Shown piece after piece: positions 14,985 through 34,775 of a DNA stretch of 64,000 bases. The stretch comes from Candidatus Moraniibacteriota bacterium (GTDB lineage Bacteria; Patescibacteriota; Minisyncoccia; Moranbacterales; UBA1568). Where the stretch lies: contig CAVURJ010000001.1 of assembly GCA_963743885.1 (NCBI GenBank), positions 140,949 through 204,948 on the forward strand, written 5' to 3'. The notes beneath the pieces were generated by a model that searched no databases, was not told where the DNA came from, and was given only the letters and a program-made list of their open reading frames with translations. A program made the translations under genes and the position numbers. Every line of letters starts with the position of its first letter. The stretch's first letter is position 1.

Positions 14985-14995
14985 ACAGGGAAAAT

Positions 14996-15717: not shown

Positions 15718-18423
15718 ATGGAAAAGAAGCCGAAAATCCTGGTTTTATTGGATGGAAACGCGCTCATACATCGCGCGTATCATGCGTTGCCGCCGCTCAC
15801 GGATAAGGCGGGGCATCCGGTCAATGCGGTGTATGGGTTCGCCATGACGCTCCTCGCGGTGCTTGAGAAGTTCCATCCGGAATATATTGCGGCGTCTTTT
15901 GATCTTTCTGGCCCGACTTTCCGCGATGAGCTATACAAGGATTACAAAGCTACCCGGACGAAGGCGCCGGACGATCTATATGAGCAGATCCCGCGTGTGA
16001 AGGATGTGGTGCGCGCATTCAATATCCCAATCTATGAGAAGGAAGGGTACGAGGCGGATGATTGCGTGGGGACGATCGCACGGCAGGCAGAAAAAGAAGG
16101 TGTGCAGACGATTATCGTGACGGGGGACAATGATGCGCTTCAGTTGGTGACGCCGCTCGTCAACGTGTTTTCGATTCGCAAGGGCATCAAGGACCTCGTG
16201 CTCTATGATGAGGCGGCTGTGAGGGCGAAGTACGGCTTCAATCCGATGCAGCTCGTCGAATATAAGGGGTTGTGTGGGGATGCGTCGGACAATATCCCGG
16301 GCGTGAAGGGTATCGGCGCCAAGACAGCGACCGATCTCATCGCGGCGCACGGTACGCTCGAAGGCATCTATACGTCGCTTGAGACGCTCAAGCCAGCTGT
16401 GAAGGCCAAGCTTGAGGCGGACAAGGAGAATGCTTTCCTCTCGCGCACGCTTGGTACGATCGATACGTCGGCTCCGGTGACACTCGCGCTCACGGATGCA
16501 GTGACGCATGAGTATGACCGGGCGGCGGTCGTGGCGCTCTTTACTGAGCTTGGATTCTTCAGTTTGGTCAAAAGATTGCCGGGTGGCGAAGCCAAGAATC
16601 AAGAATCAAGAATCAAGAATCAAGAGGGGAAGAAGCCGAAAAAGACGAAAACGTTCAAGAATGCGGAAGAGCTTGAGGAGTGGCTTGAGGCGAACAAGGG
16701 GAAGGGTGTTGCGGTCTGGATCGAGAAGGGCGAGGCATCGCTCTTTGGCGGAGCTGGTATCGCAGAGGTGAGGCTTTCGATAGTGGAGGATGCGGAGGTG
16801 GTGGTTGTATGGAACAGCGAGACGAAGCCGGCTCTTAAGGGATTCTTCGAGGATGCGAAGCGCCCGAAGATTCTCTATGATTCGAAAGAAGCGATGCATC
16901 TTCTCGTGAATGAGTATATGGCGCTGGCTGGTGTGGCACGCGATGTGAAGCTCATCGCGTATCTCCTCGATGCCGGTGGTAATGTTGGTTTCGATGAACT
17001 ACTGCTCAAGGAGTTCGGTCTAGAGCATGCCGAAGCGAAGGCCGCTGCGCTCTACGCGCTCAATGCGCGGCTCGGCGAGCGGATCAAGGCAATTTCGGCG
17101 GAGCAGCCGGCGGGCCAGCCCGCAGGAGCTACGCCCACAGCGTTGCTGGCGGGAAAGTCGCTCCTTGATGTTTATGCGGATATCGAACTACCGCTCATCC
17201 CAGTGCTCTTCGAAGTAGAGGAGAATGGCATCTTTCTCAATACGGAAAAATTTAAGGTGCTGTCGGAGCAGCTCGCGGAGGAGCTCAAGACGCTCGAGCA
17301 GGATATCTATGCGTTCGCCGGTCGTGAGTTCAATATCAATTCTCCCAAGCAGCTCTCGGAGATTCTCTTTGAGGATCTTAAGATTCCGACGACGAATATC
17401 AAGAAGACGAAGACGGGTATCTCGACGGCTTCAGCTGAGCTTGCGAAGCTTGCTGAGTATCCGATCGTCGCGAAGATCGAGAGCTATCGCGAACTCTTCA
17501 AGCTGAAGACGACCTATCTTGATGCATTGCCGGCGCTCGTGGGAGCGGACGGGCGGTTGCACACGACCTTCCATCAGACGGTTGCGGCGACGGGGCGGCT
17601 CTCGTCATCTGATCCAAACTTGCAGAATATCCCCGCGAGGAACGCATGGAGCGAGCGTATCCGAGGAGCGTTCGAGGCGAAGCCTGGGTATCTCTTCGTC
17701 GGTGCGGACTATTCGCAGATCGAGCTTCGCGTCATGGCGCATCTTTCGGGAGATGAGTCGCTTGCCGAATCCTTCCGCAATGGTGAAGATGTCCATACGC
17801 GCACGGCTTCTGTGGTCTTCAAGGTGAAGCCGGAGGAGGTGACGGCCGATATGCGCCGGCAGGCCAAGGTCTTTAACTTCGGCATCATGTACGGTATGGG
17901 TAGCTTCGGCCTCGCACAGGCGGCTGGCATCAATCAGAAGACGGCAGCACAGTTTATCAAAGCATATTTCGAGAAATTCTCCGGCGTGACGCGATTTATT
18001 GAGGAGATGAAGGAAGGCGCGCGGAAGCATCACTTCGTTGAGACCGAGCTCGGACGTCGGCGCTATGTGCCGGAGATCGAGAGTGGCAATGTGCAGATAG
18101 CGCGTGCGGCCGAGCGCATGGCGATCAACATGCCGATTCAGGGATTGGCGGCTGATATCATGAAGCTCGCGATGCTCCGCGCGCAGAGAGTTGTCGATAG
18201 GTTTAATGATGCGAACCCGCCCCCGCCCGCATCCCGCTTGAAACGGGAAACGTGGCGGGCAAGGATGGTGCTCCAGGTGCATGATGAGCTCATCTTCGAA
18301 GTGAAGGCGGAGCTTGCGGAAACGTTCGCGAAGGAAGTGAAGGAAGCGATGGATGGAGCCTACCCGCTCCGCGTGCCGCTCATCGCTGCCGTCGAGATCG
18401 GGAAGAATTGGGGAGAGATCTAG
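15718..18423 (+). CDS. polA: DNA polymerase I
   Basis: N-terminus ILVLLDGNALIHRAYHA (5'-3' exo), Pol A motifs (RRQAKVFNFGIMYG, VHDELIFE); carries two in-frame repeat insertions (16594-16624 and 18216-18260). Confidence 0.9.
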   Translation: MEKKPKILVLLDGNALIHRAYHALPPLTDKAGHPVNAVYGFAMTLLAVLEKFHPEYIAASFDLSGPTFRDELYKDYKATRTKAPDDLYEQIPRVKDVVRAFNIPIYEKEGYEADDCVGTIARQAEKEGVQTIIVTGDNDALQLVTPLVNVFSIRKGIKDLVLYDEAAVRAKYGFNPMQLVEYKGLCGDASDNIPGVKGIGAKTATDLIAAHGTLEGIYTSLETLKPAVKAKLEADKENAFLSRTLGTIDTSAPVTLALTDAVTHEYDRAAVVALFTELGFFSLVKRLPGGEAKNQESRIKNQEGKKPKKTKTFKNAEELEEWLEANKGKGVAVWIEKGEASLFGGAGIAEVRLSIVEDAEVVVVWNSETKPALKGFFEDAKRPKILYDSKEAMHLLVNEYMALAGVARDVKLIAYLLDAGGNVGFDELLLKEFGLEHAEAKAAALYALNARLGERIKAISAEQPAGQPAGATPTALLAGKSLLDVYADIELPLIPVLFEVEENGIFLNTEKFKVLSEQLAEELKTLEQDIYAFAGREFNINSPKQLSEILFEDLKIPTTNIKKTKTGISTASAELAKLAEYPIVAKIESYRELFKLKTTYLDALPALVGADGRLHTTFHQTVAATGRLSSSDPNLQNIPARNAWSERIRGAFEAKPGYLFVGADYSQIELRVMAHLSGDESLAESFRNGEDVHTRTASVVFKVKPEEVTADMRRQAKVFNFGIMYGMGSFGLAQAAGINQKTAAQFIKAYFEKFSGVTRFIEEMKEGARKHHFVETELGRRRYVPEIESGNVQIARAAERMAINMPIQGLAADIMKLAMLRAQRVVDRFNDANPPPPASRLKRETWRARMVLQVHDELIFEVKAELAETFAKEVKEAMDGAYPLRVPLIAAVEIGKNWGEI
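16594..16624. repeat. (AAGAATC)4 heptanucleotide microsatellite in polA linker, encodes KNQESRIKNQE
   Basis: aagaatc x4 + aag; identical arrays at 26519 and 34554. Confidence 0.9.
18216..18260. repeat. GC-rich palindromic element copy within polA (in-frame)
   Basis: cccgcccccgcccgcatcccgcttgaaacgggaaacgtggcgggc; encodes ~NPPPPASRLKRETWRA inserted just before the VHDEL motif. Confidence 0.55.
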
Positions 18424-18488
18424 AGCGGCTTTTAGTTTGCAGCTTCGTTAGCTTTTAGGGGGGGGAATAATTCTTAGCGGATGATGGT

Positions 18489-19133
18489 ATGAGAATGGAA
18501 CTGATGCCAATGAAAAAGAACAACGAGTCCATGCGGCTCGCAGAGGCATTCAGGATTGCAAGAACGAATGAATTTATCAGCAAGGATTTGCTTTTGGATT
18601 TGGAGTTGGACCTTGAGAATGGGGGGTTTTTACTTGCGAAAACGAATGAGGTTTTCGAAAAAATGCACAATCAAGAATTGCTTTGTCGTAGTGAATCTTT
18701 CAGTGAAGTGATGAGCGCTGTTATTGATGGAAAGGATATTGAACTTAGGAATCCGGAAAATGATGCTAATATGTGTGTTGTAGCTGGCGGATCAGGTTTT
18801 CGTACGGCTATGATAGAGGGGTTTTCCGGTAAGGATGTCAGCGGAACAGTGAAAGCCGTTGTCACTTTCAGGAAGAATCATCTAGTATCTATTGATCCAA
18901 TAACGAGAGATTCTCGACTCTGGGAATTGAAGCCAGAAACAGCTCAGGTTTCATTGAGAGGAGAAGGAATAATATCTCCCGATGACATTGAGATGGTATC
19001 GTTGAGGTTTCCAGTAAGATTCTTTCCAGAAGAGATGCTGACGGAAGAGGAGGCTGATAGGCTGGGCGACGAACAGATACGGTTTATCGTGAGGCATTAC
19101 ATAAAAACAAAAAGCCGCCCCATACATCATTGA
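18489..19133 (+). CDS. Hypothetical protein (low-GC islet, ~42% GC)
   Basis: 214-aa ORF with markedly lower GC than flanks; G8 tract 23 bp upstream of ATG. Confidence 0.45.
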   Translation: MRMELMPMKKNNESMRLAEAFRIARTNEFISKDLLLDLELDLENGGFLLAKTNEVFEKMHNQELLCRSESFSEVMSAVIDGKDIELRNPENDANMCVVAGGSGFRTAMIEGFSGKDVSGTVKAVVTFRKNHLVSIDPITRDSRLWELKPETAQVSLRGEGIISPDDIEMVSLRFPVRFFPEEMLTEEEADRLGDEQIRFIVRHYIKTKSRPIHH

Positions 19134-19147
19134 TGATTGGTGCGGCC

Positions 19148-19417
19148 TTAATGTGTCTCGATGGATTTGGCGCATTTTGAGCAGAATGGCGTCTCAGGGA
19201 TGAGTTCCAATCGCTTTTCCTCAATTGGTGTTCCGCAGTTGGTGCAGAGGCCGTATTGTCCGTCTGCCAGGCGTCTGACAGCGAAGTCGATCCGCTTGAT
19301 ATCGTCGTAGGAATGCGACAGCGCTTGTTCTCCGCCTTTGTGCAAAATTCCAAGCTTTGATTTCCTGCGTATAGCGAGCCGCCTCCCTATTTGTACAAGG
19401 AACTCCTGCGTAAACAT
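19148..19417 (-). CDS. DksA/TraR-family C4-type zinc-finger protein
   Basis: 89 aa; YGLCTNCGTPI...PETPFCSKCA four-Cys zinc finger. Confidence 0.65.
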   Translation of the reverse strand: MFTQEFLVQIGRRLAIRRKSKLGILHKGGEQALSHSYDDIKRIDFAVRRLADGQYGLCTNCGTPIEEKRLELIPETPFCSKCAKSIETH

Positions 19418-19512
19418 GATAACTCCCGAGTTGTTAAGGAAAAAACAGGATAGTATATTTATAAAGCTTTGTCAACAGTGCTAATCATTTATTGTTTTAT
19501 ATAAGCCATAAT

Positions 19513-20364
19513 ATGCCGGAACTACCGGAAGCGCAGACAGTTGTATCGCAGCTTGGGAAGAAGGCTATCGGCAAGATGGTTTCTGGTTTTTCGAGTGAGT
19601 GGAAGAAGAATGTGCGGCCTTCTTTCGCTGCTTTTGTTCGTAGGGCGAAGAGTGGATCGGTCGTCGCAGTACGTCGTTTCGGCAAGCATATCGTCATCGA
19701 TCTCGATAATGGTTTCTCAATCGTCATCCATCTCAAGATGACCGGGCACCTGCTCTGGAAGACCGATGAGAATCGCGAGAGCAAAGCGTTCGTTGATGAT
19801 CCGTATAATGGTTTCATCCGACATACCCTTTCCTTCTCTGACGGGTCGACGCTTGAATTTTCTGATATGCGCAAGTTCGGCTGGCTCCATGTGATGCCGA
19901 CCAAGGAAGTGGAGGAGCTCCCGTCGATCAGTGGCCTTGGTATCGATGCGCTTTCGCCCGAGCTCACCACGAAGCGTTTCCGTGAGATCGTCTTGTCTCG
20001 GCCCAAGCGGACGATTGGTGAGGCACTGCTCGATCAGGACCGTATCGCTGGCATTGGCAATATCTACCGGAGCGAAGCGCTCTTCCTCGCGTGCGTGCGT
20101 CCAGATCGTATCGTCGCGAGTATTACTGATGAAGAATGGCAGCGGCTCCTGCCAGCAGTGAAACAAGTGCTCCGTCACGCAGCACGTCTTGGTGGACTCT
20201 CTGGTGGTGACTTCCGTGATACAGATGGCAGAGACGGGCGTTTCCAGCGTGCGGCGTATACGTATCAGCGCGACGGTGATCCGTGCAAGATATGTGGTAC
20301 AATTATAAAGCGTAAAAAACTCGGGCAGCGCAGTGTTTTCTATTGCGCGCATTGCCAAAAGTAA
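19513..20364 (+). CDS. mutM: Formamidopyrimidine-DNA glycosylase (Fpg/Nei family)
   Basis: MPELPEAQTV N-terminus (catalytic Pro2), C-terminal zinc finger CKICGTIIKRKKLGQRSVFYCAHCQK. Confidence 0.85.
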   Translation: MPELPEAQTVVSQLGKKAIGKMVSGFSSEWKKNVRPSFAAFVRRAKSGSVVAVRRFGKHIVIDLDNGFSIVIHLKMTGHLLWKTDENRESKAFVDDPYNGFIRHTLSFSDGSTLEFSDMRKFGWLHVMPTKEVEELPSISGLGIDALSPELTTKRFREIVLSRPKRTIGEALLDQDRIAGIGNIYRSEALFLACVRPDRIVASITDEEWQRLLPAVKQVLRHAARLGGLSGGDFRDTDGRDGRFQRAAYTYQRDGDPCKICGTIIKRKKLGQRSVFYCAHCQK

Positions 20365-20381
20365 CAGCTATCAAAAAACAT

Positions 20382-21515
20382 ATGGATGGAAGGAAGAAAG
20401 TCATCATCGCGGTCATCGCGATCGTTGTCGCTATCGCTGTGTGGTATTTTGCCTTCGGCAAGCAGGGCGCCCGCAAGCCGATCGAGCTCAATAACAAGCA
20501 GCAGTCGATGACAGAAGTGCAGACCTCCCCGGTGAATGAGGGCAATGTCAGCCCGCTCTCGGGTCTACCGTGCGACAACTGGAACCGTCGCCCGATCGCG
20601 GTCATGCAGCCTGGTGATGTGACGGCCCGTCCAGCTGCTGGTTTCTCTGAGGCAGACATGGTCTTCGAGATTCCGGTCATCACGTCGAGCATCACGCGGC
20701 TCATGGGCGTATACCTCTGCAACACGCCGGCGGAGACCGGATCAATGCGGAGTGCGCGCCATGACTTCATCAGCCTCGCCAAGGGTCTTGATGCCATCTT
20801 CGTCTCATGGGGACGCTCGGAGTCGCATGACGATTCTGATCCGGTCGGCCTCGCTAAGGGTATCCTCGATCGCGGTGAGGTTGAGAATATCAACTGCAAT
20901 GGCGATGCTGGCAAGTCGGCCAACGCCTGCCCGGAGAATCCTTGCTTCCGCAAGGACGGGATCGCCCGCGGTGTGGATAGCGGCTACGGCAAGCCGGCTG
21001 GGTTCTTCCAGTGCGCCAAGGATTTCGGGTACCGTCTTGAGAACAAGTTCGTTGGTTACAAGCATGTGGCTGAAGCGGCAGCTGATAGCCGGCCGAAGGG
21101 TGGACACTTGCGCGTAGCATTCGCTGGACCGTATGCGGCCGAGTATGACTATGACAAGGATACGAATAGCTATCTCCGTACCTGGGGCAATGTGCCGGAT
21201 ACCGATCGTAATACGAAGGCTCGTGTCGCTCCGAAGAACGTCGTGGTATTGATCGCACTTTCCGAGCAGATCGAGGGGCAGTACAACAATGTGCAGCTCG
21301 GTGATCCGTGGTACGACCGGACCGATAGCGGTGATGCTTTCTACTACGTGAACGGACAAGAGATCCGTGGTACTTGGAAGAAGGACAAGTCAAACATCTC
21401 GAGCAAGCTCTTCTTCTACGATCAGTCAGGTAAGGAAATGGAGTTTGTCCCAGGCCAGATCTGGGTCGAGGTGCTCGAGCCGGGCCAGACGCTCCGGTGG
21501 GAACCTGTGAACTAG
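20382..21515 (+). CDS. DUF3048-like (YerB-like) secreted/membrane-anchored protein
   Basis: N-terminal TM anchor; RPIAVMQPGDVTARPAAGFSEADMVFEIPV resembles the DUF3048 N-terminal motif. Confidence 0.5.
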   Translation: MDGRKKVIIAVIAIVVAIAVWYFAFGKQGARKPIELNNKQQSMTEVQTSPVNEGNVSPLSGLPCDNWNRRPIAVMQPGDVTARPAAGFSEADMVFEIPVITSSITRLMGVYLCNTPAETGSMRSARHDFISLAKGLDAIFVSWGRSESHDDSDPVGLAKGILDRGEVENINCNGDAGKSANACPENPCFRKDGIARGVDSGYGKPAGFFQCAKDFGYRLENKFVGYKHVAEAAADSRPKGGHLRVAFAGPYAAEYDYDKDTNSYLRTWGNVPDTDRNTKARVAPKNVVVLIALSEQIEGQYNNVQLGDPWYDRTDSGDAFYYVNGQEIRGTWKKDKSNISSKLFFYDQSGKEMEFVPGQIWVEVLEPGQTLRWEPVN

Positions 21516-21519
21516 CTTC

Positions 21520-21640
21520 TTAGCTTGTAGCTTCTTTAGCTTCGTTAGGGCAAAAACAGACCACAAGTCTGTTTTTTGCTATACTGAAGGGAGTTTTCTA
21601 GCTGAAAGCTAATGCAGCTAACGAAGCTAATGCAGCTACT
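21520..21640. repeat. Inverted pair of TAGCTTCGTTAGC-family repeats flanking a bidirectional terminator
   Basis: tagcttgtagcttctttagcttcgttag ... ctaatgcagctaacgaagctaatgcagcta around the acagac-cacaa-gtctgt-TTTTTT hairpin; a related copy lies at 18437-18458 after polA. Confidence 0.6.
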
Positions 21641-21643
21641 GTT

Positions 21644-22618: not shown

Positions 22619-22658
22619 GCTTTAGCTCATCCTGGTTTTTTGGTTGGTATTTTTGTTT

Positions 22659-22694
22659 TCCTCCTCCACTGCCAAGGGGAGGGTAGGGAGGGGT
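22659..22694. repeat. Hairpin repeat, left flank of DUF559 gene
   Basis: cctcctccactgccaaggggagggtagggagggg; inverted/near-identical partner at 23053-23087. Confidence 0.6.
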
Positions 22695-22700
22695 TATGAT

Positions 22701-23051
22701 ATGTACCGGATATTCAATAAAAAAGATACGACTGAATTCCGAAGGAAGCTTCGGAAAGAATCTACACCGCAAGAGATAATCCTCTGGTCGCGATTGCGGA
22801 GAAAAGCTCTTGGATATAAATTCCGTCGCCAGCAGGCTATAGACGGATATATCGTTGATTTTTTCTGCTCAGAAAGGAATCTCATCATAGAATTGGATGG
22901 GTGGCAGCACAAGGAATCGGTGAAGCATGATGAAAAGCGGACGGAGTATCTCAATGGTCTCGGTATGAGGGTTTTGCGTTTTTGGAATAATGAAGTCAAT
23001 GATGACTTGGAAGGGGTGGTGTTGAAGATTGAGGAGAGCCTGAAGAATTGA
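22701..23051 (+). CDS. DUF559 (Vsr-like endonuclease fold) domain protein, low-GC
   Basis: ESTPQEIILWSRLR...GYKFRRQQAIDGYIVDFFC...LIIELDGWQH; ~43% GC. Confidence 0.65.
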   Translation: MYRIFNKKDTTEFRRKLRKESTPQEIILWSRLRRKALGYKFRRQQAIDGYIVDFFCSERNLIIELDGWQHKESVKHDEKRTEYLNGLGMRVLRFWNNEVNDDLEGVVLKIEESLKN

Positions 23052-23052
23052 C

Positions 23053-23087
23053 CTCCCCTCAATCCCCTCCTTGGCAGGAGGGGAGGA
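23053..23087. repeat. Hairpin repeat, right flank of DUF559 gene
   Basis: cctcccctcaatcccctccttggcaggaggggagg. Confidence 0.6.
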
Positions 23088-23092
23088 AGAAC

Positions 23093-23122
23093 GAAAAAAC
23101 CTCCCGGAAGGGAGGTTTTGCT
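23093..23122. terminator. Bidirectional rho-independent terminator
   Basis: aaaaaacctcccggaagggaggttttg. Confidence 0.7.
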
Positions 23123-23148
23123 ATATACGGTATACGGTATACGATATA

Positions 23149-23418
23149 CTACTTTGTTGCTGCCTTCTTTACGAGGGCGTTCAAGCGGGACTTCTTGCGG
23201 GCAGCGGTGTTCTTCTTGATCACCTTCTTCTGCGCGGCCTTGTCGAGAGCCTTGATGGCCTTCTTGAGAGTCTCCTGCGCCTCGTCTACCTTGCCGGCAG
23301 CGATGGCTTCGCGAGTCTTCTTGACGGCGCTCTTCACGACACCGTTCACGACTTTGTTGCGGAGCGTGTTCTTGGCGGTGACGCGCATGTACTTCCTGGC
23401 GGCTTTCTTAATCGGCAT
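23149..23418 (-). CDS. rpsT: 30S ribosomal protein S20
   Basis: MPIKKAARKYMRVTAKNTLRNKV... Lys/Ala-rich 89 aa. Confidence 0.9.
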   Translation of the reverse strand: MPIKKAARKYMRVTAKNTLRNKVVNGVVKSAVKKTREAIAAGKVDEAQETLKKAIKALDKAAQKKVIKKNTAARKKSRLNALVKKAATK

Positions 23419-23563
23419 AGTAGCTATATCAAAATTAAAATATCAAAACGAAAAACTGATAAAACAAGGAACCTGAGACCTATTCTTTCTATCATGGTCC
23501 GAGTGTTTTGGCAAGAGTACGGCATTTTTTCGACTTTGTATATCAGGGGTATGTTATTGAAAT

Positions 23564-23612
23564 TACCGGGAATCCTGGTATATTTGACAAGTACCGGGAA
23601 TCCCGGTAAAAT
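23564..23612 (+). promoter_or_regulatory. Sigma70-type promoter (TTGACA-17-TAAAAT) with two copies of the 17-bp palindrome TACCGGGAATCCCGGTA; -10 abuts start codon
   Basis: taccgggaatcctggta (23564-23580), ttgaca (23584-23589), taccgggaatcccggta (23592-23608), taaaat (23607-23612). Confidence 0.6.
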
Positions 23613-23618
23613 ATGGTC

Positions 23619-24584
23619 ATGAAGATATCCATACCAAATAGCGCGTTTCTTGGCAATATTAACCCTTTTTTGAGGGGTTTTGACCCTAAGAATAAGGAAA
23701 TTTTTGAGATAGCAGCGAACGAGAAATGGATATCTGTCCATCCTGTCGCGCTGGCTATGATTGCCGCTATTGGGCTACCACTCAAGGCGAATGAGGTGTT
23801 CTTCGATAGGCTGACGGCGAAATCGGGGCACTATCTCGAAAGGATGGGATTATTCAAGTTTCTCGGGATCGATTCTGGGATAAAGATCAATGAGCATGAG
23901 CCGGCAGGAAGATTCATCCCGCTGACGCAGATAAACAATTCCGATGAGCTTTCAAAATTCGTAACGGACATCATCCCGTTGCTCCATCTCAATCCGCTCC
24001 AGACCGATGCACTCCGTTATGTCATCAGCGAACTCGTGAGGAATGTCATCGAGCATGCTGATTCCCCAATCGGAGCAATCGTCGCTGCTCAGTATTATCC
24101 GGATAACACTATACGGATCGGCATTGCCGATACCGGAGTAGGGATACGGTCTACCATCAGCAAGGCGCATCCGGCGAAAACCGATATTGATGCGATCAGG
24201 CTCGCTCTGACACCAGGGATAACCGGTACGACGAGCCGGGAAGGAGGCACGGAATCCAATGCCGGTGCCGGTCTGTTCTTTATAAAATCCATATCAAAGG
24301 TGAGTAGGGAATTCTTCATGATATACAGCGGCGACGCCATGTACAAGCTTCTCAAGGAGCCGCTCCGGGCGAAGAGACCAATAAGGCTTTTCGCGGATCC
24401 GTTCAATGATAGGTATACAGCCGAAGAAGGTTTGCCGGTCTGGCAAGGGACGGTTGTCGGGGTGGATATATCGCTTGATGACACGCAAGAATTCTCGGAC
24501 CTTTTAGATCTTATCAGGGACGTGTATGCGAAAACAGTGAGAGAACGGAGACGTGAAAAATATAAGAAACCGAAATTCATATGA
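23619..24584 (+). CDS. GHKL/histidine-kinase-like ATPase domain protein (low-GC), probable leaderless start
   Basis: ALRYVISELVRNVIEHADSP ... IGIADTGVGI ... GAGLFFIKSIS (N, G1, G2 boxes); alternative ATG at 23613. Confidence 0.6.
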   Translation: MKISIPNSAFLGNINPFLRGFDPKNKEIFEIAANEKWISVHPVALAMIAAIGLPLKANEVFFDRLTAKSGHYLERMGLFKFLGIDSGIKINEHEPAGRFIPLTQINNSDELSKFVTDIIPLLHLNPLQTDALRYVISELVRNVIEHADSPIGAIVAAQYYPDNTIRIGIADTGVGIRSTISKAHPAKTDIDAIRLALTPGITGTTSREGGTESNAGAGLFFIKSISKVSREFFMIYSGDAMYKLLKEPLRAKRPIRLFADPFNDRYTAEEGLPVWQGTVVGVDISLDDTQEFSDLLDLIRDVYAKTVRERRREKYKKPKFI

Positions 24585-24871: not shown

Positions 24872-24883
24872 TTAATATCGCTT

Positions 24884-25453: not shown

Positions 25454-25461
25454 GGCTGATA

Positions 25462-26194: not shown

Positions 26195-26257
26195 TCCTCT
26201 GGACTTCGGATTCTGCTCTGACCTTTGAGCTTGGTCCTTAGTCCTTTGACCCCGCAT

Positions 26258-26296
26258 TTTACCAACATGGTAGTGCGGGGTTTCATTTTTTCAATT
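26258..26296 (+). terminator. Rho-independent terminator
   Basis: ccccgca-(17-nt loop)-tgcgggg followed by tttcatttttt. Confidence 0.5.
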
Positions 26297-26361
26297 TCTT
26301 GCTTTTTTATATATCGCATCTTGGATTGCCTCAGTATGCGAATGACTATACACTAGGAAAT

Positions 26362-27375
26362 ATGAATACAAGCGAATTCCTCCAATCAGAAGCCTGGGCG
26401 AAGCTGCAGGTCGCGGCTGGACATGAAGCGGTGCGTATCGGGGACGATGCGTATGGTTTTGTGCATGTGTTGCCGCTGGTTGGGCGTTACCTCTATACGC
26501 CGAGATGGCCGGCAGATGGAATCAAGAATCAAGAATCAAGAATCAAGAATCTACTTGCGGAAGCGGAGAAAGTCGGAGCGAAATGGATACGGATTGAGCC
26601 GGAGACGGAGGGGATGAAAGAGATACTTCTCCGCCAGCTGGCGGATCAGAATGGTACTGTTTCGGTAGAAAAATCTCCACATGACATGCAGCCGCGGGAG
26701 ACTTTTGTCATTGATATCGCGAAGAGCGAGGATGAGTTGCTCGCAGCAATGAAGCCGAAGACTCGCTACAATATCCGACTGGCAGAGAAGAAGGGTGTTC
26801 GGGTCTTCGCGACACAGGAAAAGAAATATCAAGAAGCCTTTCTTGATCTCATTACCGCGACCGCTGAGCGCAAGGACATCGTGCCGCATCCAAGGAGCTA
26901 TTATGAGAAATTCTTTACCGAGCTACCGGAGGAGATGTGTCACCTCTTCGTCGCGGAATATGAGGGTGTCGTCGTTGCGGCCAATCTCGTGATGATCTAT
27001 GGTGATACGGCGACGTACCTTCATGGCGGGTCAGGCGACCGGTATCGCGAGGCGATGGCGCCGTTCCTCCTCCAGTGGGAGCAGATCAAGTTCGCGAAAA
27101 GCAAGGGTTGTGCGAAGTACGACTTCGGAGGAGTGAGGACAGTCAACAGTCAACAGTCAACAGTCAACGGAGAAACTACAAACTACAAACTACAAACTAC
27201 AAGCTCGTGGGGAGGAATCACGAGATTCAAAACGGGATTTTCGCCGAAGACCGAGCCGACCGTCTTTCCTGGATGCTATGATATCGTACTCGACAAGAAA
27301 GCGTACTGTCTCTATGGGAAGCTGCGGCTGATCCAGGGTGTTCTCGTGCGGATAAGGAGGCTTTTCGGTCTGTAG
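26362..27375 (+). CDS. FemAB-family peptidoglycan aminoacyltransferase, with three in-frame heptamer arrays
   Basis: FemAB-like architecture (FVAEYEGVVVAANLVMIYGDTATYLHGG); arrays at 26519-26551, 27141-27168, 27174-27201. Confidence 0.65.
   Translation: MNTSEFLQSEAWAKLQVAAGHEAVRIGDDAYGFVHVLPLVGRYLYTPRWPADGIKNQESRIKNLLAEAEKVGAKWIRIEPETEGMKEILLRQLADQNGTVSVEKSPHDMQPRETFVIDIAKSEDELLAAMKPKTRYNIRLAEKKGVRVFATQEKKYQEAFLDLITATAERKDIVPHPRSYYEKFFTELPEEMCHLFVAEYEGVVVAANLVMIYGDTATYLHGGSGDRYREAMAPFLLQWEQIKFAKSKGCAKYDFGGVRTVNSQQSTVNGETTNYKLQTTSSWGGITRFKTGFSPKTEPTVFPGCYDIVLDKKAYCLYGKLRLIQGVLVRIRRLFGL
26519..26551. repeat. (AAGAATC)4 heptanucleotide microsatellite in femAB, encodes IKNQESRIKN
   Basis: gaatcaagaatcaagaatcaagaatcaagaatc. 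Confidence 0.9.
27141..27201. repeat. Adjacent (AGTCAAC)4 and (AACTACA)4 heptanucleotide arrays in femAB
   Basis: agtcaac x4 (27141-27168), ggagaa spacer, aactaca x4 (27174-27201); encode TVNSQQSTVNGETTNYKLQTT. Confidence 0.9.
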
Positions 27376-27619
27376 AAGAAACTCAATCGAAAACGAGACT
27401 TTACACGGCCTCTTTTTGTATGTTTTTATCCGCGGTGCTTTACGGGAAGACAGAAGAGTACTATACTCAGCTGTTCGTTAAAAACTGAAGAGTTTTTGCA
27501 ACAGAGAGCATCGGTTGTTGTGCGCGGCAGATTTTGTAGCTAATGACCGGATAAGGGAGGGGAACCACAGCATGACGCCCCTTTCATTCAGGGGGGGGCA
27601 TCATTTTGAGGAGAATAAC

Positions 27620-28243: not shown

Positions 28244-28343
28244 TCTCTGAATCGAAGCGCCTTTTCGCATATTCCGTGTCTTGGTATCCGCCTCGGCACG
28301 GGATTTTCTTTTTTTAAGAAATATCTATACACTAGGAAGTACT

Positions 28344-29600
28344 ATGAAACGATTCATTTCGCGGCTTCTGCCGCAGCAGGCCAAGAATTGGTATCATTTC
28401 GCGCAGGCGGTCGTCGCATGCGTCTTCTTCGGCTTTCCTGGGAAGAAGCTTCGGGTGATCGGTGTGACTGGGACGAACGGTAAGACGACCACGACGCAGA
28501 TGATCGCGCGCATTCTCGACAAGGCCGGGAAAAAAATAGCGATGGCCTCGACAATCAATTTTCAGATTGGAGAGAGGAAGTGGACCAATGCCTCGAAGTT
28601 CACGACACTCTCGCCGTGGAAGCTGCAGAAGTTTCTTTCCGAGGCGGTGGCGGCTGGTTGCGAATATGCGATCGTCGAGACATCGTCGCATGCACTCGAT
28701 CAGGGCCGGGTATGGGGTATTCCGTACGCGATTGCTGTCATGACCAATGTGACGCGCGAGCATCTCGACTATCACAAAACGATGGAAGGATATCGTGCGG
28801 CCAAGCGGAAGCTTTTCGAGATGGCGGACAAAGCGGTCATCAATGCTGATATGGAGGAGCCGGAGTACTTCCGTATCCCTGGAAGAGAGTCTATCGCGTA
28901 TAGTGTAAAGGACGTGAGCGCACATCTCTTTGCCCAGCATGTCGAGCTCGATTTCAAGGGGACGGAGTTTGCAGTCGATGGGACAGAGTTCCGTTTGCAT
29001 CTTCCGGGACTTTTCAATATCGAGAATGCGCTCGCAGCACTCGGTGTCGCTCGGCTGCTCCAGATTGATTTCTCGGTCGCTCGGGAAGCGCTTGAGAGCA
29101 TCGCGGGTGTGTCGGGGCGCATGGAGCTTGTGCCGAACGCGGTCGAGGCGGATATCTTGATTGACTACGCGGTGACGCCAGACGCTTTCGAGAAGCTCTA
29201 TGCCTCTATCATTCCGCTCAAGATCCCGGGTTCGAAGATCATCCATGTTTTCGGTGTGTGTGGCGAGCGCGATCGGGGCAAGCGGCCGATGCTCGGCGAG
29301 ATCGCTTCGTCCAATGCGGATATCATCATCCTGACGAACGAGGACCCGTACTATGAGGATCCGGAACAGATCATTGATGATATAGAAAAAGGAGTGACGA
29401 AGAAAAAGGATAAGGACTATTTCCGTGTCTTCGACCGGCGCGAAGCGATCCGGAAGGCGCTTTCGATCATGGAGATCGGCGACATCGTGCTCATCACTGG
29501 CAAGGGCGCGGAGGAGACGATGGCGCTCGGTGGCAAGCGCATCCCGTGGAATGAACGCAGGGTGGTTGAGGAAGAACTCTCACAGTTATCAAGTTTGTAA
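28344..29600 (+). CDS. murE: Mur ligase family enzyme, MurE-like (UDP-MurNAc-tripeptide synthetase)
   Basis: GVTGTNGKTTTTQMIARIL P-loop, Mur ligase middle/C domains. Confidence 0.75.
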   Translation: MKRFISRLLPQQAKNWYHFAQAVVACVFFGFPGKKLRVIGVTGTNGKTTTTQMIARILDKAGKKIAMASTINFQIGERKWTNASKFTTLSPWKLQKFLSEAVAAGCEYAIVETSSHALDQGRVWGIPYAIAVMTNVTREHLDYHKTMEGYRAAKRKLFEMADKAVINADMEEPEYFRIPGRESIAYSVKDVSAHLFAQHVELDFKGTEFAVDGTEFRLHLPGLFNIENALAALGVARLLQIDFSVAREALESIAGVSGRMELVPNAVEADILIDYAVTPDAFEKLYASIIPLKIPGSKIIHVFGVCGERDRGKRPMLGEIASSNADIIILTNEDPYYEDPEQIIDDIEKGVTKKKDKDYFRVFDRREAIRKALSIMEIGDIVLITGKGAEETMALGGKRIPWNERRVVEEELSQLSSL

Positions 29601-29654
29601 AGTTTTTAAAGTCATAAAGTCTGCGAGTCTGAAAGACGGAGAAAAAAAAGAAAA

Positions 29655-29692
29655 GCCGCCCGACGATGAGTCGAAGGGCGGTTTTTGTTTGG
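29655..29692. terminator. Bidirectional rho-independent terminator
   Basis: aaagccgcccgacgatgagtcgaagggcggttttt. Confidence 0.7.
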
Positions 29693-29707
29693 CGCGTTGG
29701 CCGTGGA

Positions 29708-30100
29708 TCAGCCGGACGCGTTTTGAGCGAGCAACTGAGCCGCAAGAGTGGGAGGGCTTGTATCGCTGTCTTTTTCAGGATCAACGATGGCGGGCTGGGT
29801 CGGTCGGGAACTGAGTGTGATGGCGCCTTCCATGGCGCGGCACAGAAGGTCCCGAGTCGTACTGTCGGTCTGTTGTTTCGGAAGTCCATCGTAGAGCTTC
29901 TGGATCAGCATCGAGTAGACGAAGTCTTCTTCAAGAGAAGTAAGACTGTAGATTTCTTCGCCTGCGATTTTCAAGACCTCTTTCGGGGTCAGCTTTTGAC
30001 GATGCTTCATGCCCTCATCGGTTACTTGAGCGGCATAGAAGAAGTAAGACGGGTTGTCGTTACGATGCCGTTTGCCGAAGCAGTAGAAAATACGGATCAT
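29708..30100 (-). CDS. Hypothetical protein
   Basis: 130-aa ORF convergent on terminator; downstream of PAP2 gene on same strand; weak coding signal. Confidence 0.35.
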   Translation of the reverse strand: MIRIFYCFGKRHRNDNPSYFFYAAQVTDEGMKHRQKLTPKEVLKIAGEEIYSLTSLEEDFVYSMLIQKLYDGLPKQQTDSTTRDLLCRAMEGAITLSSRPTQPAIVDPEKDSDTSPPTLAAQLLAQNASG

Positions 30101-30219
30101 AGGGCCCTCCTTTCGGGCGTTTGGTTGTTAAGGAAGGGGTTCGCTTTGTGAGGCTTTGTGGACAAAAAAAACGATGAGAGCAGTATGCGCTCCCATCGTG
30201 GCTCTTGTCAAGATTGGCT

Positions 30220-30666
30220 CTAAGCGAGGACGGCGATGAAGAGAAGAGTGAGGAAGAAGCCGATGATGGCGCCGCCGATGACCTCGCTCGTGCGATGACC
30301 GACGCGCTCCTTGAGGCGGGGGAACTTCTCTTCGTCGATCTCGCCTTTCAGCTGGTCGATGAGCATATTGAGGTAGCGGCCCTGGTCGCCTAAGTGCATG
30401 CGGATGCGAGCGGCGTCATCGACGACGATGAAGGCGAGGACGGCCGCGAGGGCGAAGGTGCCGGAATGGATGCTTTCGTAATAGCCGACCGTCGTGAGGA
30501 GTGAGACGACGAGCGCGGTGTGGGCACTTGGCATGTGGCCGTGGGTGAAGACATATTCCGGCTGCCACCCGTGCTTCATGGTGAAGAGGATGAACTTGAT
30601 GATTTGGGCGATGACACCAACTGTGATCGGGATCGCGAAGAGGTAGTATGTCTGCACAGAATCCAT
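30220..30666 (-). CDS. Divergent PAP2-family (YuiD-like) membrane protein
   Basis: HGHMPSAHTALVVSL motif, 4 TM. Confidence 0.6.
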   Translation of the reverse strand: MDSVQTYYLFAIPITVGVIAQIIKFILFTMKHGWQPEYVFTHGHMPSAHTALVVSLLTTVGYYESIHSGTFALAAVLAFIVVDDAARIRMHLGDQGRYLNMLIDQLKGEIDEEKFPRLKERVGHRTSEVIGGAIIGFFLTLLFIAVLA

Positions 30667-30739
30667 AGCCTTTTTGGTTAATGTTTCGTTTTTAGTATAG
30701 CATTTTTGGTGTGGTATAATAAGGGTGTCTTAAATCGTA

Positions 30740-31306
30740 ATGTCAAATCATATGGGTATTGGATTGATCCTGCTGATAGTTCTGGCAGTCGTCGTGCTGT
30801 ACGTGGTCGGTGCATACAACGGCTTGGTTCGCCTCAAGAACCGTGCCGGGGAAGCCTGGAGCGATATTGATGTGCAGCTCAAGCGTCGTTATGATCTCAT
30901 CCCGAACCTCGTGAGTACGGTGAAGGGGTATGCCGCGCATGAGAGTGGTGTTTTCGAGAAGGTGACTGAGGCGCGTACTAAGGCTATGTCAGCGACCGGT
31001 GTCGCCGAGAAGGGTGAGGCGGAGAATATGCTTGCCGGCGCACTCAAGTCTGTCTTTGCGATCGCGGAAGCATATCCGGATCTCAAGGCGAACCAGAACT
31101 TCCTCGAGCTGCAGCGCGAGCTCTCCGATACGGAGAACAAGATCCAGGCGTCCCGCCGCTTCTACAATGGCAACGTCATGGAGCTCAACACTAAGATCGA
31201 GATGTTCCCGTCGAATATCATCGCGGGCATGTTCAACTTCGCGAAGCGCGAGTTCTTCGAACTGAACGAAGAGGCAGCCAAGGAGCCGGTCAAGGTCGAG
31301 TTCTAA
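30740..31306 (+). CDS. lemA: LemA family protein
   Basis: N-terminal TM + VVGAYNGLVRLKNRAGEAWSDIDVQLKRRYDLIPNLV; extended -10 (tggtataat) upstream. Confidence 0.85.
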   Translation: MSNHMGIGLILLIVLAVVVLYVVGAYNGLVRLKNRAGEAWSDIDVQLKRRYDLIPNLVSTVKGYAAHESGVFEKVTEARTKAMSATGVAEKGEAENMLAGALKSVFAIAEAYPDLKANQNFLELQRELSDTENKIQASRRFYNGNVMELNTKIEMFPSNIIAGMFNFAKREFFELNEEAAKEPVKVEF

Positions 31307-33035
31307 TTGCTGGCTATGAGCCTTCTCAATAAGGCATTAAAAGGGAGTCTTGGACTTATTGCCCTCGGCTTCCTTTTCTTTTGTGCGGAACCGGTGCGAG
31401 CCGAGGAAATCAGCCGTTTCTCTACCGATATCGTGGTAGGGAGCGATGCATCGATGGCTGTTGTTGAGACCATTGACTATGATTTTGGCGAGGAGATGCG
31501 TCATGGCATTTATCGTGATATCCCGACGGAGTACGTGACGAAGCTCGGGGCGGATCAGAGTATCGATATCAACGTAGAGGGCGTGGAAGACGCTTCTGGG
31601 AAGAGCTATACGTATGAGACGTCCTCTTCTGGTGGTGTCTTGAAGATCAAGATTGGCGATGCCGATACGCTGATCACTGGGCGGCATACGTATGTCATCC
31701 GTTACCGGGCCCGGTATGCATTCGGATATTTCGATGGCTTTGATGAGCTCTATTGGAATGCGACGGGCAATGGTTGGCAGGTGCCAATAGGTCGAGCCGA
31801 AGCGAGGCTGACGCTGCCCGAGAATGTGCCGTCGGACAAGATCCAGACGAGTTGTTATCTCGGCGCATACGGGAGCAGTGAATCCTGCGACGACGCCGCT
31901 CATTTCGATGGACGTGCCTACGTCGCTTCTGCTTCTCGGGTCCTCCAGCCGAGTGAAGGACTGACGATCGCGGTCGGTTTTCCAAAGGGGGTCATTCGTG
32001 AGGTCGGTACGCTTGAGCGGATCTGGAATTTCATCAAGGATAATCCGGTCTCGCTCCTGCCACTTCTCGTCTTCGGGTATATGTTCCGGCACTGGTATCG
32101 CTACGGGCGCGACCCGGAAGGTCGTGGGACGGTCATCCCAGAATACGATATGCCGGGAAGGACTGTCTGTTATCGAGGTGGCGGGACTGATGAAGAGCTC
32201 TGTCTCGGCTGAGCAGGTCTCGGCGGGTATCGTCGACCTTGCCGTGCGCGGCTATTTGAAGATTGCGAAGACTGAGAAAAAGGTCCTCGTTTTCTCAAGC
32301 GATGAGTATGTCTTTACCCGGACGGAGAAGCCAGCTGAGGATGCTATCGATCGAGCATTCCTTGAGGCACTTTTCGGCGAAGCGGACGGTTTTGGCAAGG
32401 CGGTCGAGCTCTCGTCGCTCAAGCAGAAGTTCTACAAGTCCATCCCGGAGATAGAGAAGCTCGCTATGGGGCGGCTCGTCGAGAAGGGATACTTCCCGAA
32501 GAACCCGAAGGATGTCATCGGTAAATACATCTTGTTCGGGGTCTTAGGTATCTTTGCGGCTGTTTTCGTTTTTCCGGGTGGTCCGGTGGCGGTCATCTCG
32601 GTCATTATCTCGTTCGTCGCCTATTTCGTTTTTGCTGCGCTCATGGGTACCGTGACGAAGGACGGGGCGATCGTGAAGGAGCACATCTTGGGTCTCAAGG
32701 ATTATCTTTCCATTGCGGAGAAGAATCGTATCGAGTTTCACAACGCTCCTGAGAAGCGGCCGGAGCTCTTTGAGAAGCTCCTGCCGGCTGCGATGATCCT
32801 CGGTGTGGAGAAGCTTTGGGCTAGGGAATTCGAGGATATGTATATGGCGGAGCCACAGTGGTATAGCGGTGCGCATGGGGCGGCGTTTTCGGCATCAGCG
32901 TTCGCATCGGATCTCGGCGGCTTCCAGACGGCAGCATCGCAGACGCTCGCTTCTGCTCCGGGCGGATCGAGCGGCTCTGGTGGCGGTGGATTCTCCGGCG
33001 GAGGTGGCGGCGGAGGTGGCGGTGGGAGCTGGTAA
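31307..33035 (+). pseudogene. DUF2207 (TPM-associated) membrane protein split by a frameshift near 32153-32157
   Basis: ORFs 31307-32212 and 31998-33035 are N and C halves (EYDMP | EGLSVIEVAGL...DLAVRGYLKI; Gly-rich tail); deleting one G in ccggg restores the frame. Confidence 0.55.
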
Positions 33036-33078
33036 TCCACTGGCGTTTCAGGTAAAATTTCTGTTTTTAGGGTATACT

Positions 33079-33118
33079 GGATGTCGCAGAGTATACCCTT
33101 TTCATTTTTTTATCTTGA
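33079..33118 (+). terminator. Rho-independent terminator
   Basis: gggtatact-ggatgtcgcag-agtataccc + ttttcattttttt. Confidence 0.6.
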
Positions 33119-33137
33119 ATTGTGAAACCTCTTTTTC

Positions 33138-33239
33138 TGTCATCCCGGGCTCGACCCGGGATCCAGAAATATGACTAAATAAAGAAGTCCTGGATTCCCG
33201 CCTGCGCCAGCCTCGACGTCTAGGCGGGCGGGAATGACA
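33138..33239. mobile_element. MITE-like ~100-bp element with terminal inverted repeats TGTCATCCCGG / CGGGAATGACA, containing GC-palindrome copy D
   Basis: tgtcatcccgggctcgacccgggatccagaaa ... cccgcctgcgccagcctcgacgtctaggcgggcgggaatgaca. Confidence 0.5.
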
Positions 33240-33278
33240 ACTGAAAGCGGAGCTTCATAATCCAAAGTTTTTACGCCT

Positions 33279-34172
33279 ATGGCAACTCTCTATACAAGTT
33301 ATGATCGGAACAGCCGGCTGACCTGGGTCTATCTGACCGGGTTCCTCGTCTTCGTGATCGGCGTTGGCTATGTCTTCGCTGGTGCGATGCAGTCGAGTGC
33401 GATTCTTTATGGCGCGGTGGCTTTTTCAATCATCATGAGCGTCTCGTCGTACTGGTATAGCGATCGGATCGTGCTCTCGATGAGCGACGCGAAGCTGGTT
33501 GAATTTGAAAGCAACAAAGAGCTGTACCGTCTCGTGGAGAATCTCGCCATCACAGCGGGCCTGCCGACGCCAAAGATCTATGTCATCGAGGATACGGCGA
33601 TGAACGCCTTCGCGACGGGGCGTGATCCGGAGCACGGCGTGATCTGTTTCACGACTGGCATCCTCTCGCGGCTCGATCGTGCGGAGCTTGAGGGTGTCGC
33701 CGCACACGAGCTCTCGCATATTGGCAACCGGGATACGCTTGTCGCGACTGTTGTCGTCATTCTGGTCGGCTTCGTGGCGCTCCTCGCTGATTGGTTCCGA
33801 CACTGGGCCTGGTATGGCAGTCGGGATAATGACAACCGTGATGGTCGGCTACAGCTGATCTTGTTCGTGGCGGCAATCATCCTTTCGCTCTTGGCGCCGC
33901 TCGCAGCGACCCTCATGCAACTTGCCATCTCGCGGAAGCGCGAATTCCTGGCAGATGCATCAGGAGCTCTCCTGACGCGTTATCCAGAAGGATTGGCCCG
34001 CGCTCTTGAGAAGATTTCGGGCGATACTGAACCGCTCGAAGCTGCCAACCGTGCCACCGCTTCGCTCTATATATCGAATCCTTTCAAGGGAAAGAAAGTG
34101 TCCAAGTTTTTCATGACCCATCCGCCGATGGAAGAACGTATTGCGGCGCTCCGGGGGATGAACCTTAAGTAG
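33279..34172 (+). CDS. htpX: Zinc metalloprotease HtpX (peptidase M48)
   Basis: HELSHIGNRD HExxH motif, 4 TM, 297 aa. Confidence 0.85.
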   Translation: MATLYTSYDRNSRLTWVYLTGFLVFVIGVGYVFAGAMQSSAILYGAVAFSIIMSVSSYWYSDRIVLSMSDAKLVEFESNKELYRLVENLAITAGLPTPKIYVIEDTAMNAFATGRDPEHGVICFTTGILSRLDRAELEGVAAHELSHIGNRDTLVATVVVILVGFVALLADWFRHWAWYGSRDNDNRDGRLQLILFVAAIILSLLAPLAATLMQLAISRKREFLADASGALLTRYPEGLARALEKISGDTEPLEAANRATASLYISNPFKGKKVSKFFMTHPPMEERIAALRGMNLK

Positions 34173-34262
34173 AATTATTATTCGGCTAACGGGTTTTGCG
34201 GGTTAACGAGTTCGTATTTAACCCGTTAACGCGTTAACTCGTGAACTGATCAATTTCTAATT

Positions 34263-34775
34263 ATGGCATCTCCATATCAAGATTTCGTCGCGAAGGCTCG
34301 GGAGCGTTTCGAGGCCAAGCGGCAGGCGAAAGCACAGAGTACTGGCCAGTATCGTTTCACGCTGCATGCGCAGTTCAAGATGCAGCAGTACGGGTTGTCG
34401 GATCAGAAGGTGCGGAGTGTCATCCGCAATCCGCGTCGCCGCGAGGAAGGCATTGTGAAAGACACGGTCGCGGTGATGCAGCCGGTTTCGGTGAAGCGGG
34501 GTGCTGATGGCAAGGATACCTGGAAGCAGGAAATCTGGGTGATGTTCGTTTTGAAGAATCAAGAATCAAGAATCAAGAATCAAGAACAAAAGAAGAAAAA
34601 GGCTGGAAGCGACCAATCGGAGTCTCATGATTCTCAATTCTCAATTCTTAATTCTGCGGGCCGACAGGTCCGCATTATAAGTGCCTGGCGGTATCCGGGA
34701 ATCAGCCCGAAAAGGAACCCTATACCAGAGGATATTCTTTTGGAGCTTGAGAGAGAAGATGTTCTGGAGGGCTGA
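34263..34775 (+). CDS. Hypothetical protein (DUF4258-like N-terminus) containing an (AAGAATC)4 array
   Basis: YRFTLHAQFKMQQYGLSDQKVRSVIRNP; array at 34554-34587 encodes KNQESRIKNQEQ. Confidence 0.45.
   Translation: MASPYQDFVAKARERFEAKRQAKAQSTGQYRFTLHAQFKMQQYGLSDQKVRSVIRNPRRREEGIVKDTVAVMQPVSVKRGADGKDTWKQEIWVMFVLKNQESRIKNQEQKKKKAGSDQSESHDSQFSILNSAGRQVRIISAWRYPGISPKRNPIPEDILLELEREDVLEG
34554..34587. repeat. (AAGAATC)4 heptanucleotide microsatellite, third copy
   Basis: aagaatc x4 + aagaac; inverted degenerate (GATTCTY)4 at 34629-34656. Confidence 0.9.

Follow-up and report, generated by a model that had tools for sequence, protein, structure and literature searches.

The DNA analyzed here, called the window below, is a stretch of 64,000 nucleotides (nt) from a gene-dense Candidatus Moranbacteria genome of about 54% GC in the Candidate Phyla Radiation (CPR; Patescibacteria), and corresponds to positions 140,949 to 204,948 of the 652,564-bp contig CAVURJ010000001.1 (assembly GCA_963743885.1). 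Tandem arrays of 7-nt units are present in it both within and between genes; they were called with Tandem Repeats Finder (TRF) and with an exact-run scan for perfect runs of at least 18 nt at periods of 5 to 15 (Table 1). Arrays of the AAGAATC type lie in three open reading frames (ORFs), namely polA, femAB, and a DUF4258-like ORF (ORF3), each as a perfect period-7 run of 33 nt (four full units plus 5 nt, or 4.7 copies). A search of the plus strand for (AAGAATC)2 gave nine overlapping exact matches, which make up the three arrays, and none in 100 dinucleotide shuffles. The three arrays named in an earlier reading of the bare sequence (the original prediction) are thus real and non-random, with ends that had been placed 1 to 2 nt off. 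Its host genes were also borne out. PolA matches PF02739, PF01367, and PF00476, and its array encodes amino acids 301 to 311, between the 5′ nuclease and exo-like domains; FemAB is assigned by Pfam as well, whereas the 170-amino-acid ORF3 has no Pfam match of its own, DUF4258 being the label of its homologues. Overlooked in that prediction were two further arrays in femAB and an inverted partner of the array in ORF3.

Table 1. Heptamer arrays and a hairpin variant in the window, and copies of a 21-nt hairpin inside arrays of related contigs.
Sequence	Feature	Positions	Strand	Context	Evidence
Window	(AATATCT AATACCT)2.2	14993-15023	.	Intergenic, ~10 nt 5′ of the minus-strand gene 13848-14984	
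Window	(AAGAATC)4.7, KNQESRIKNQE	16593-16625	+	PolA interdomain linker	Exact-run scan, TRF, ORF 15694-18423
Window	(TATACGG)3.7	23124-23149	.	Directly 3′ of a terminator-like hairpin, probably intergenic	
Window	(GAATCAA)4.7, IKNQESRIKN	26519-26551	+	FemAB, site 50	Exact-run scan, TRF, ORF 26299-27375 (PF02388)
Window	(ACAGTCA)4.3, TVNSQQSTVN	27139-27168	+	FemAB, site 258	Exact-run scan, TRF
Window	(AAACTAC)4.3, TTNYKLQTT	27173-27202	+	FemAB, 4 nt past the ACAGTCA array	Exact-run scan, TRF
Window	(AAGAATC)4.7, KNQESRIKNQE	34554-34586	+	ORF3 (170 amino acids, DUF4258-like, 34263-34775)	Exact-run scan, TRF
Window	Imperfect inverted partner (GATTCTC/AATTCTC)n, DSQFSILNS	34625-34655	+	ORF3, 39 nt downstream of the AAGAATC array	
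Window	(CCCTAWW)4.4	36341-36371	+	3′ end 5 nt upstream of the ATG of the pyruvate kinase gene (36377)	
Window	CCYGCC...GGCRGG-family variant CCCGCCAGGGGCGGGCAGG	37943-37961	.	55 nt after (TTGTTGA)3 (37868-37888)	
Window	(ATTGRAA)n	51014-51055	+	Shortly 5′ of a start codon; AATTTCCAAT repeated in inverted orientation at 50941-50983	
Window	(NNGAACA)5	58657-58694	+	Gene junction	
L299	Hairpin, AAGAATC AAGAATC-CCTGCCCGTTCGGCAGGCGGG-AAGAATC AAGAATC	6892-6912		PolA linker; the window array plus the hairpin	
L300	Hairpin	1055-1075		FemAB site 50 array	
L174	Hairpin	1707-1727		FemAB site 258 array	
L120	Hairpin	18094-18114		ORF3 array	

The original prediction placed the identical arrays of three unrelated genes in the same reading frame and took this as a sign of selection on frame. 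Since 7 and 3 are coprime, all codon phases are visited every 21 nt, and an array of at least three units reads as the same cyclic peptide in any frame. Frames 1, 2, and 3 of (AAGAATC)n give KNQESRI, RIKNQES, and ESRIKNQ, which are one cyclic heptapeptide. The use of AAG as a codon in all three window arrays is therefore uninformative; the "same frame" is arithmetic, a tempting false signal that this analysis removes. The only selectable features are a stop-free orientation and a length divisible by 3, and the KNQESRI peptide is a by-product of heptamer DNA. Orientation is constrained because the complement, GATTCTT, gives TGA: among the matches listed from public genomes, 52 of 126 AAGAATC arrays lay in long spans open in the sense direction, compared with a single array in an antisense-open span. 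Array length modulo 3 in other phyla was dropped as a test of frame, the length of a perfect run not being the length of the indel.

The period of 7 is not confined to the AAGAATC unit. The window has seven perfect arrays of 18 nt or more, and every one of them has period 7, with five distinct units: AAGAATC (three arrays), ACAGTCA, AAACTAC, TATACGG, and ATTCTCA. The 822 kb flanking AAGAATC arrays elsewhere held 78 further, non-ascertained perfect arrays of period 7, built from many units, compared with 14 for periods 5, 6, 8, and 10 together. In a lag scan, lag 7 alone stood out in the window as well as in L120, which is the syntenic and closest relative of the window, and in L121. The same signal was found in the proteins, where 9-residue windows with at most one mismatch to the translation of some perfect heptamer repeat were present in 55/120 FemAB, 35/120 ORF3, and 14/120 PolA homologues; periods 4, 5, or 8, or shuffled proteins, gave approximately no positives.

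AlphaFold2 models indicate where the encoded peptides may lie. In the FemAB model (mean predicted local distance difference test [pLDDT] score, 90.6), the ACAGTCA and AAACTAC arrays form the sole disordered loop (residues 266 to 279, pLDDT <50), and the site 50 array extends over a loop into the first part of a helix. Both arrays of ORF3 fall in a low-confidence insertion between two conserved strands. Judging from these models and from the domain layout of PolA, the arrays sit in regions that would tolerate any peptide, i.e., an interdomain linker and surface loops.

Heptamer segments of the Moranbacteria orthologues align with the array positions of the window and have about the same length, but they are built from many units, including AAGAATC, AGGAATC, AAGTATC, AAATATC, AATTTCC, AATTTTC, AAAAATC, AACAGTC, AAACTAC, and others. 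The linkers of PolA orthologues contain perfect or degenerate heptamer arrays, many ORF3 orthologues carry AAGAATC or AGGAATC arrays at the corresponding site, and the AAACTAC unit recurs at the matching FemAB site in P0143, P0152, and P0179. At FemAB site 50, the DNA of approximately 33 nt reads (GAATCAA)4.7 in the window, (CCAATTT)4.6 in L120, (GGAATCA)4.7 in L121, and (AAGTATC)4.9 in L177; in L178, whose gene is otherwise 93 to 98% identical, the AAGTATC array of L177 is present with three substitutions. All units at this site keep an in-register core, ATY...A (Ile-x-Asn), and vary at other positions. The loop at site 258 is hypervariable among proteins that are at least 90% identical, with protein lengths of 317, 324, and 331 amino acids that differ by 7-residue steps at the array, and the array itself is present, interrupted, replaced, or absent in close relatives. 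The units ACAGTCA, AACAATC, and AAGAATC, which are one to two base changes apart, replace one another at the same FemAB site in close relatives. In the femAB genes of L173 to L178, approximately 200 nt at the second array site (gene positions ~720 to 900) are 52 to 77% identical, compared with 90 to 96% overall; this tract could be a recombination mosaic or the product of repeat-associated hypermutation. Homogenization between sites within a genome was rejected as a general rule, as a single FemAB protein seldom has one unit at both site 50 and site 258.

The orthologues also bear on whether the peptide KNQESRIKNQE was itself selected and recruited independently. Similar peptides do recur in orthologues and in unrelated proteins. 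No KNQESRI-type peptide with nonperiodic codons was seen; the orthologues that have such a peptide encode it in the same heptamer DNA. The peptide in different codons, named in the original prediction as refuting evidence, was thus not encountered, and an origin at the DNA level is not refuted. A perfect 7-nt DNA repeat with identical codons is beyond the reach of selection on a peptide, and other units at the same sites encode unrelated peptides. As for an assembly artifact, the arrays are present in independent assemblies (NCBI, JGI, ENA, and Logan), always in frame. Peptide selection and artifact are both, in our estimate, scarcely credible as explanations.

A scan of species-level genomes for (AAGAATC)3 yielded at least 119 loci in many phyla. 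Among the matches listed, 21/25 arrays from CPR classes were genic, compared with 31/101 elsewhere, and 21/25 had exactly four full units, the mode elsewhere being three. The genic CPR arrays of this set were enriched for lengths of 28 to 34 nt (p = 0.005), and all 21 are read through in frame. Their Pfam-confirmed hosts include TrmD (twice, in the same loop), a GT4 glycosyltransferase (twice, at the same interdomain site), ArgRS, AlaRS, a Mur ligase, and GatA. Two ORFs resembling LeuRS, an assignment made by inspection only, carry the array at the same site, one from a Moranbacteria and one from a Levybacteria locus. The Levybacteria ORF (L090) has at least four separate heptamer-encoded inserts (KIKNQRSKIK, KIQNSKFKI, ESRIKNQESRI, and KSKIKNQKSKM). 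AAGAATC was rejected as a globally special unit, since viral contigs contain 19 (AAGAATC)3 loci, compared with 20 and 12 for two composition-matched control units.

These hosts and lengths argue against the arrays being phase-variable contingency loci. There is an in-ORF heptanucleotide precedent for such loci in neuO of the Escherichia coli K1 prophage CUS-3, where (AAGACTC)n varies from 3 to 53 units and single-unit variation switches a non-essential gene (PMC13001214). Like the window arrays, neuO has a heptamer within the ORF, a heptad peptide, and GANTC in its unit, which differs by one base, and a one-unit slip shifts the frame, as the original prediction rightly stated. In contrast to neuO, arrays of the window type are fixed at about four units and lie in housekeeping genes (PolA, FemAB, tRNA synthetases, TrmD, Mur ligase, and GatA) rather than in genes for dispensable surface or modification functions. 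In every assembly, the 21 genic CPR arrays listed and all orthologues keep the frame, and the steps between length variants are of 21 nt (7 amino acids), not of single units. We concur with the original prediction that this is not ordinary phase variation, and we regard the contingency-locus explanation as very improbable.

We favor, with a probability of roughly one half, the explanation that the arrays are heptanucleotide simple repeats like the short tandemly repeated repetitive (STRR) sequences of cyanobacteria, located in permissive protein loops of a CPR genome. The three marks of STRR-like repeats, i.e., head-to-tail 7-nt units, a period-7 excess with several units, and variation of unit number or sequence among relatives, are all present. 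Under this explanation, slipped-strand events would gain, lose, and homogenize units, and loop-outs of 7 nt may be too large for MutS-type repair. Selection would retain only those arrays whose orientation is free of stops, whose length changes sum to a multiple of 3, and whose loops are of tolerable length. An array that grows from a single ancestral unit by steps of 7 nt and has to keep the frame would come to 1 + 3k units, a series that includes the observed four; as a rule, arrays in ORFs should have 1 + 3k units. With time, the unit would mutate and be re-homogenized, the array would decay, or the whole loop segment would be replaced. Because the repeats reside inside essential genes of an ultra-small CPR genome, comparison of orthologues can be used as a clock for repeat birth, homogenization, decay, and replacement.

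Several observations weigh against this explanation. Slippage alone does not predict the sharp preference for 7 over 6 or 8, and it leaves unaccounted for both the period and the role of a 21-nt hairpin described below. For units in essential genes to be homogenized without a change in length, slips would have to come in steps of three units or in compensating pairs, neither of which was directly observed. Three identical perfect arrays in one genome are somewhat unlikely if the sites are independent, and CPR classes that are very distant from each other share a unit at a corresponding site (the LeuRS-like, TrmD, and GT4 pairs). At FemAB site 50, the nearest neighbor shares the unit in 4/41 cases, compared with a permutation mean of 3.1, and a few units recur many times. 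Because unit identity at this site does not track phylogeny, slow vertical drift of the unit was rejected; saturation within a constrained set of units fits better. Lastly, the pairing of arrays in inverted orientation, together with the array-specific hairpin, suggests an additional, possibly enzymatic, process.

The hairpin is a GC-rich 21-nt element, CCYGCC-N9-GGCRGG, with a 7 + 7 + 7 layout and no stop codon in any of the six frames. The exact 21-mer CCTGCCTCGCCGGCAGGCAGG was found at a minimum of 120 metagenome loci (L179 to L298). Of the five array sites in the window genes, four have the hairpin precisely inside the heptamer array in relatives (Table 1). Comparison with window proteins gave only 35 to 56% identity for the hairpin-bearing metagenome contigs, which is too low for taxonomic assignment. 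The femAB genes of L173 and L174, which are 96.4% identical, differ cleanly by the presence or absence of exactly these 21 nt at an equal number of units. As L173 and L174 differ by no extra unit, a 7-bp target-duplication model for the hairpin was rejected; the pair neither proves nor excludes a footprint model. Among the matches listed, direct repeats flank the hairpin only at k = 7 (22/119, with ~0.16 expected) and k = 14 (10/119), 25/30 host arrays comprise 4 to 5 units and mostly have the hairpin at their center, and 65/99 copies are located within long open frames. The palindromes of REP/RAYT systems, by comparison, lie outside genes, share a conserved 5′ tetranucleotide, and are accompanied by a RAYT transposase. 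Nesting of hairpins in the loops of other copies also occurs. A conserved, nonrepetitive element with defined ends is thus a feature of the hairpin and not of the arrays, the three AAGAATC arrays sharing no flanks. No Rfam family matched the window arrays or the hairpin loci, and our literature search found neither a report of CPR heptamer arrays read in frame nor one that mentions the 21-mer.

Two relations are conceivable: heptamer arrays are the target of the hairpin, or hairpin traffic helps to create them. The original prediction had spoken of active spread of a short sequence, a claim that is unproven in that form, given the lack of shared flanks, the other units at orthologous sites, and the lack of an excess in viral contigs. 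In its strongest form, the claim becomes an enzyme-driven system that would make or maintain the arrays as landing pads or footprints of the hairpin, which a trans-acting enzyme would insert and excise precisely, with a stagger of 7 or 14 nt setting the period. The location of the hairpin at four of five sites, the abundance of the exact 21-mer, the restriction of its flanking repeats to k = 7 and k = 14, its central position in arrays of 4 to 5 units, and the nesting of copies all point in this direction, as do the period-14 (u1u2)2 duplications in the window and the use, in some genomes, of one dominant unit in recurrent inverted-array hairpins. Yet no enzyme has been identified, L173 and L174 have equal units and no visible target duplication, and essential genes would be put out of frame by an insertion that also duplicates 7 nt (+28 nt). 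Furthermore, most arrays have no hairpin, those of the AAGAATC type in the window included, and approximately 80% of the hairpin copies listed have no flanking array. We consider such a system possible though unlikely. A related version, in which an enzyme moves the hairpin into and out of 4- to 5-unit arrays and also sets the 7-nt period, so that the (AAGAATC)4 arrays would be empty landing pads or footprints, is tentative and a degree more doubtful. Given the hairpin precisely inside them, something active may act on the arrays. If an enzyme is behind the hairpin, the hairpin would be mobile or templated DNA of a new kind, would supply protein-loop variation in reduced genomes, and would offer a handle on the period of 7. 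If the hairpin is indeed moved, no smaller mobile DNA compatible with ORFs would be known, and the heptamer excess of bacteria would have a mechanistic explanation, within an undescribed repeat system of CPR and some other phyla.

Inverted pairs and intergenic arrays bear on a further alternative, in which the arrays are functional DNA or RNA cis-elements tolerated in loops, serving as tandem sites, in a 7-nt register, for a protein that binds nucleic acid or as clustered GANTC methylation sites. The pair in ORF3 has 31-nt arms that are 81% complementary. Its minus strand folds at -40.4 kcal/mol (z = -4.4), and a plus-strand mRNA hairpin is not significant (z = -1.2); the minus-strand signal was set aside because it rests on two independent unit differences, the same ones that avoid TGA. 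Elsewhere, approximately 30 of 126 listed AAGAATC arrays have a (GATTCNT)n partner within 200 nt, and one Vicinamibacterales metagenome-assembled genome contains a recurrent intergenic element, (GATTCRT)3-4 followed by a short loop and (AAGAATC)4 (L004, L014, L022, L027, L064, L080, L082, L088, and L119). Copies of the latter element, which have one mismatch per unit, often adjoin gene starts or ends.

Such inverted pairs could form hairpins, as cis-elements might. Consistent with binding sites are also the units made of a core and a spacer (GAATCNN across many phyla and, in the window, NNGAACA and CCCTAWW), the intergenic arrays directly upstream of start codons, as for TAACTGA repeats (PMC4679880), and the four-unit preference of intergenic GGGAATC arrays (PMC4692102). 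However, many unrelated units occur within one genome and even within one gene, arrays decay or vanish in close relatives that retain the gene, and no binding protein or methyltransferase has been identified. The original prediction correctly observed that each AAGAATC unit contains GAATC, a GANTC-type motif; many, indeed most, sister arrays have no GANTC. Outside the arrays, the frequency of GANTC in the window shows no bias in either direction (observed/expected, 0.91), and a GANTC restriction-modification signature was rejected. A role as cis-elements is, in our judgment, improbable.

The favored explanation, STRR-like repeats in protein loops, places the arrays among several known systems. 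Observations that heptameric repeats are overrepresented in bacteria date back to 1990 and 2007. Cyanobacterial STRR sequences resemble the window arrays in their tandem 7-nt units, the several unit types per genome, and the dispersal of short arrays, and ACAGTCA is presumably a rotation of the STRR3 unit CAACAGT. They differ in being mostly intergenic and in large genomes, whereas the window arrays are in a CPR genome of ~54% GC, mostly in genes and at conserved loop sites. The Rickettsia palindromic elements, reportedly described by Ogata and colleagues in 2000, are said to be selfish DNA in frame in protein-coding genes, with lengths of 100 to 150 bp and a conserved unique sequence. Repeated DNA in frame at surface positions of essential proteins of a reduced genome is common to these elements and the arrays, and the 21-nt hairpin behaves in this manner in 96%-identical genes. 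As for presence or absence at orthologous sites in the manner of these elements, most orthologues have arrays with other units, and in some close relatives the array is absent or replaced. The arrays, in contrast to the Rickettsia elements, are devoid of unique sequence, and the hairpin measures just 21 nt.

For simple sequence repeats, a heptameric excess in bacteria is attributed to Mrazek et al. 2007, as cited in PMC4692102. The heptamer repeats GGGAATC of Xanthomonas and GGGGAYT of Nostoc (Rehm et al. 2015, PMC4692102) differ from AAGAATC, which has no G-tracts and is mostly genic in CPR (21/25 among the matches listed). The G-quadruplex-forming GGGNATC type requires four or more G-tracts, and the AAGAATC unit has a single G. 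TAACTGA repeats of Beggiatoaceae, cyanobacteria, and Bacteroidetes occur in 2 to 6 copies, often just upstream of starts, and show frame-independent translation, an orientation dictated by stop codons, and occasional in-ORF copies at protein peripheries (MacGregor 2015, PMC4679880). There, one dominant unit per genome is mainly intergenic, and neither conservation at orthologous sites nor a hairpin insert was reported (PMC4679880). Heptamer repeats as a kind are known in bacteria; in-gene heptamer arrays at conserved loop sites in CPR and the 21-nt hairpin appear to be new.

The remaining arrays and repeats of the window are mostly intergenic. Those at 14993-15023, 36341-36371, 51014-51055, and 58657-58694 lie directly upstream of starts, at the position expected of a Shine-Dalgarno sequence, and some of the upstream arrays consist of a 5-nt core plus two variable bases, e.g., NNGAACA and CCCTAWW. 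Period 14, in which two unlike heptamers alternate (u1u2u1u2), outscores period 7 at 14993-15023, 36341-36371, 58662-58694, 23426-23454, and 19217-19244; judging from the sequence, these repeats suggest duplication steps of 14 nt. Two GC-rich stem-loops are located 3′ of a DUF559 gene at 23050-23125, the second followed by TTTT (terminator-like) and abutting the TATACGG array, and this makes ORF 23071-23622 doubtful at its 5′ end. Outside the window, a long noncoding region of an Allomuricauda sp. (L087, 1800-2400 and 4380-5250) is crowded with arrays whose 7- and 8-nt units are of many kinds, and it also contains repeated hairpins, CCCGCCTGCGGCGGGCAGG, flanked by (CGACTTC)n, in several paralogous copies. 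Intergenic period-8 repeats with GTTAAC (GTTAACGA and TTAACTCG) are present in the window at 34170-34250 and 6776-6835, in one case a short distance 5′ of ORF3, and may represent an operator-like element.

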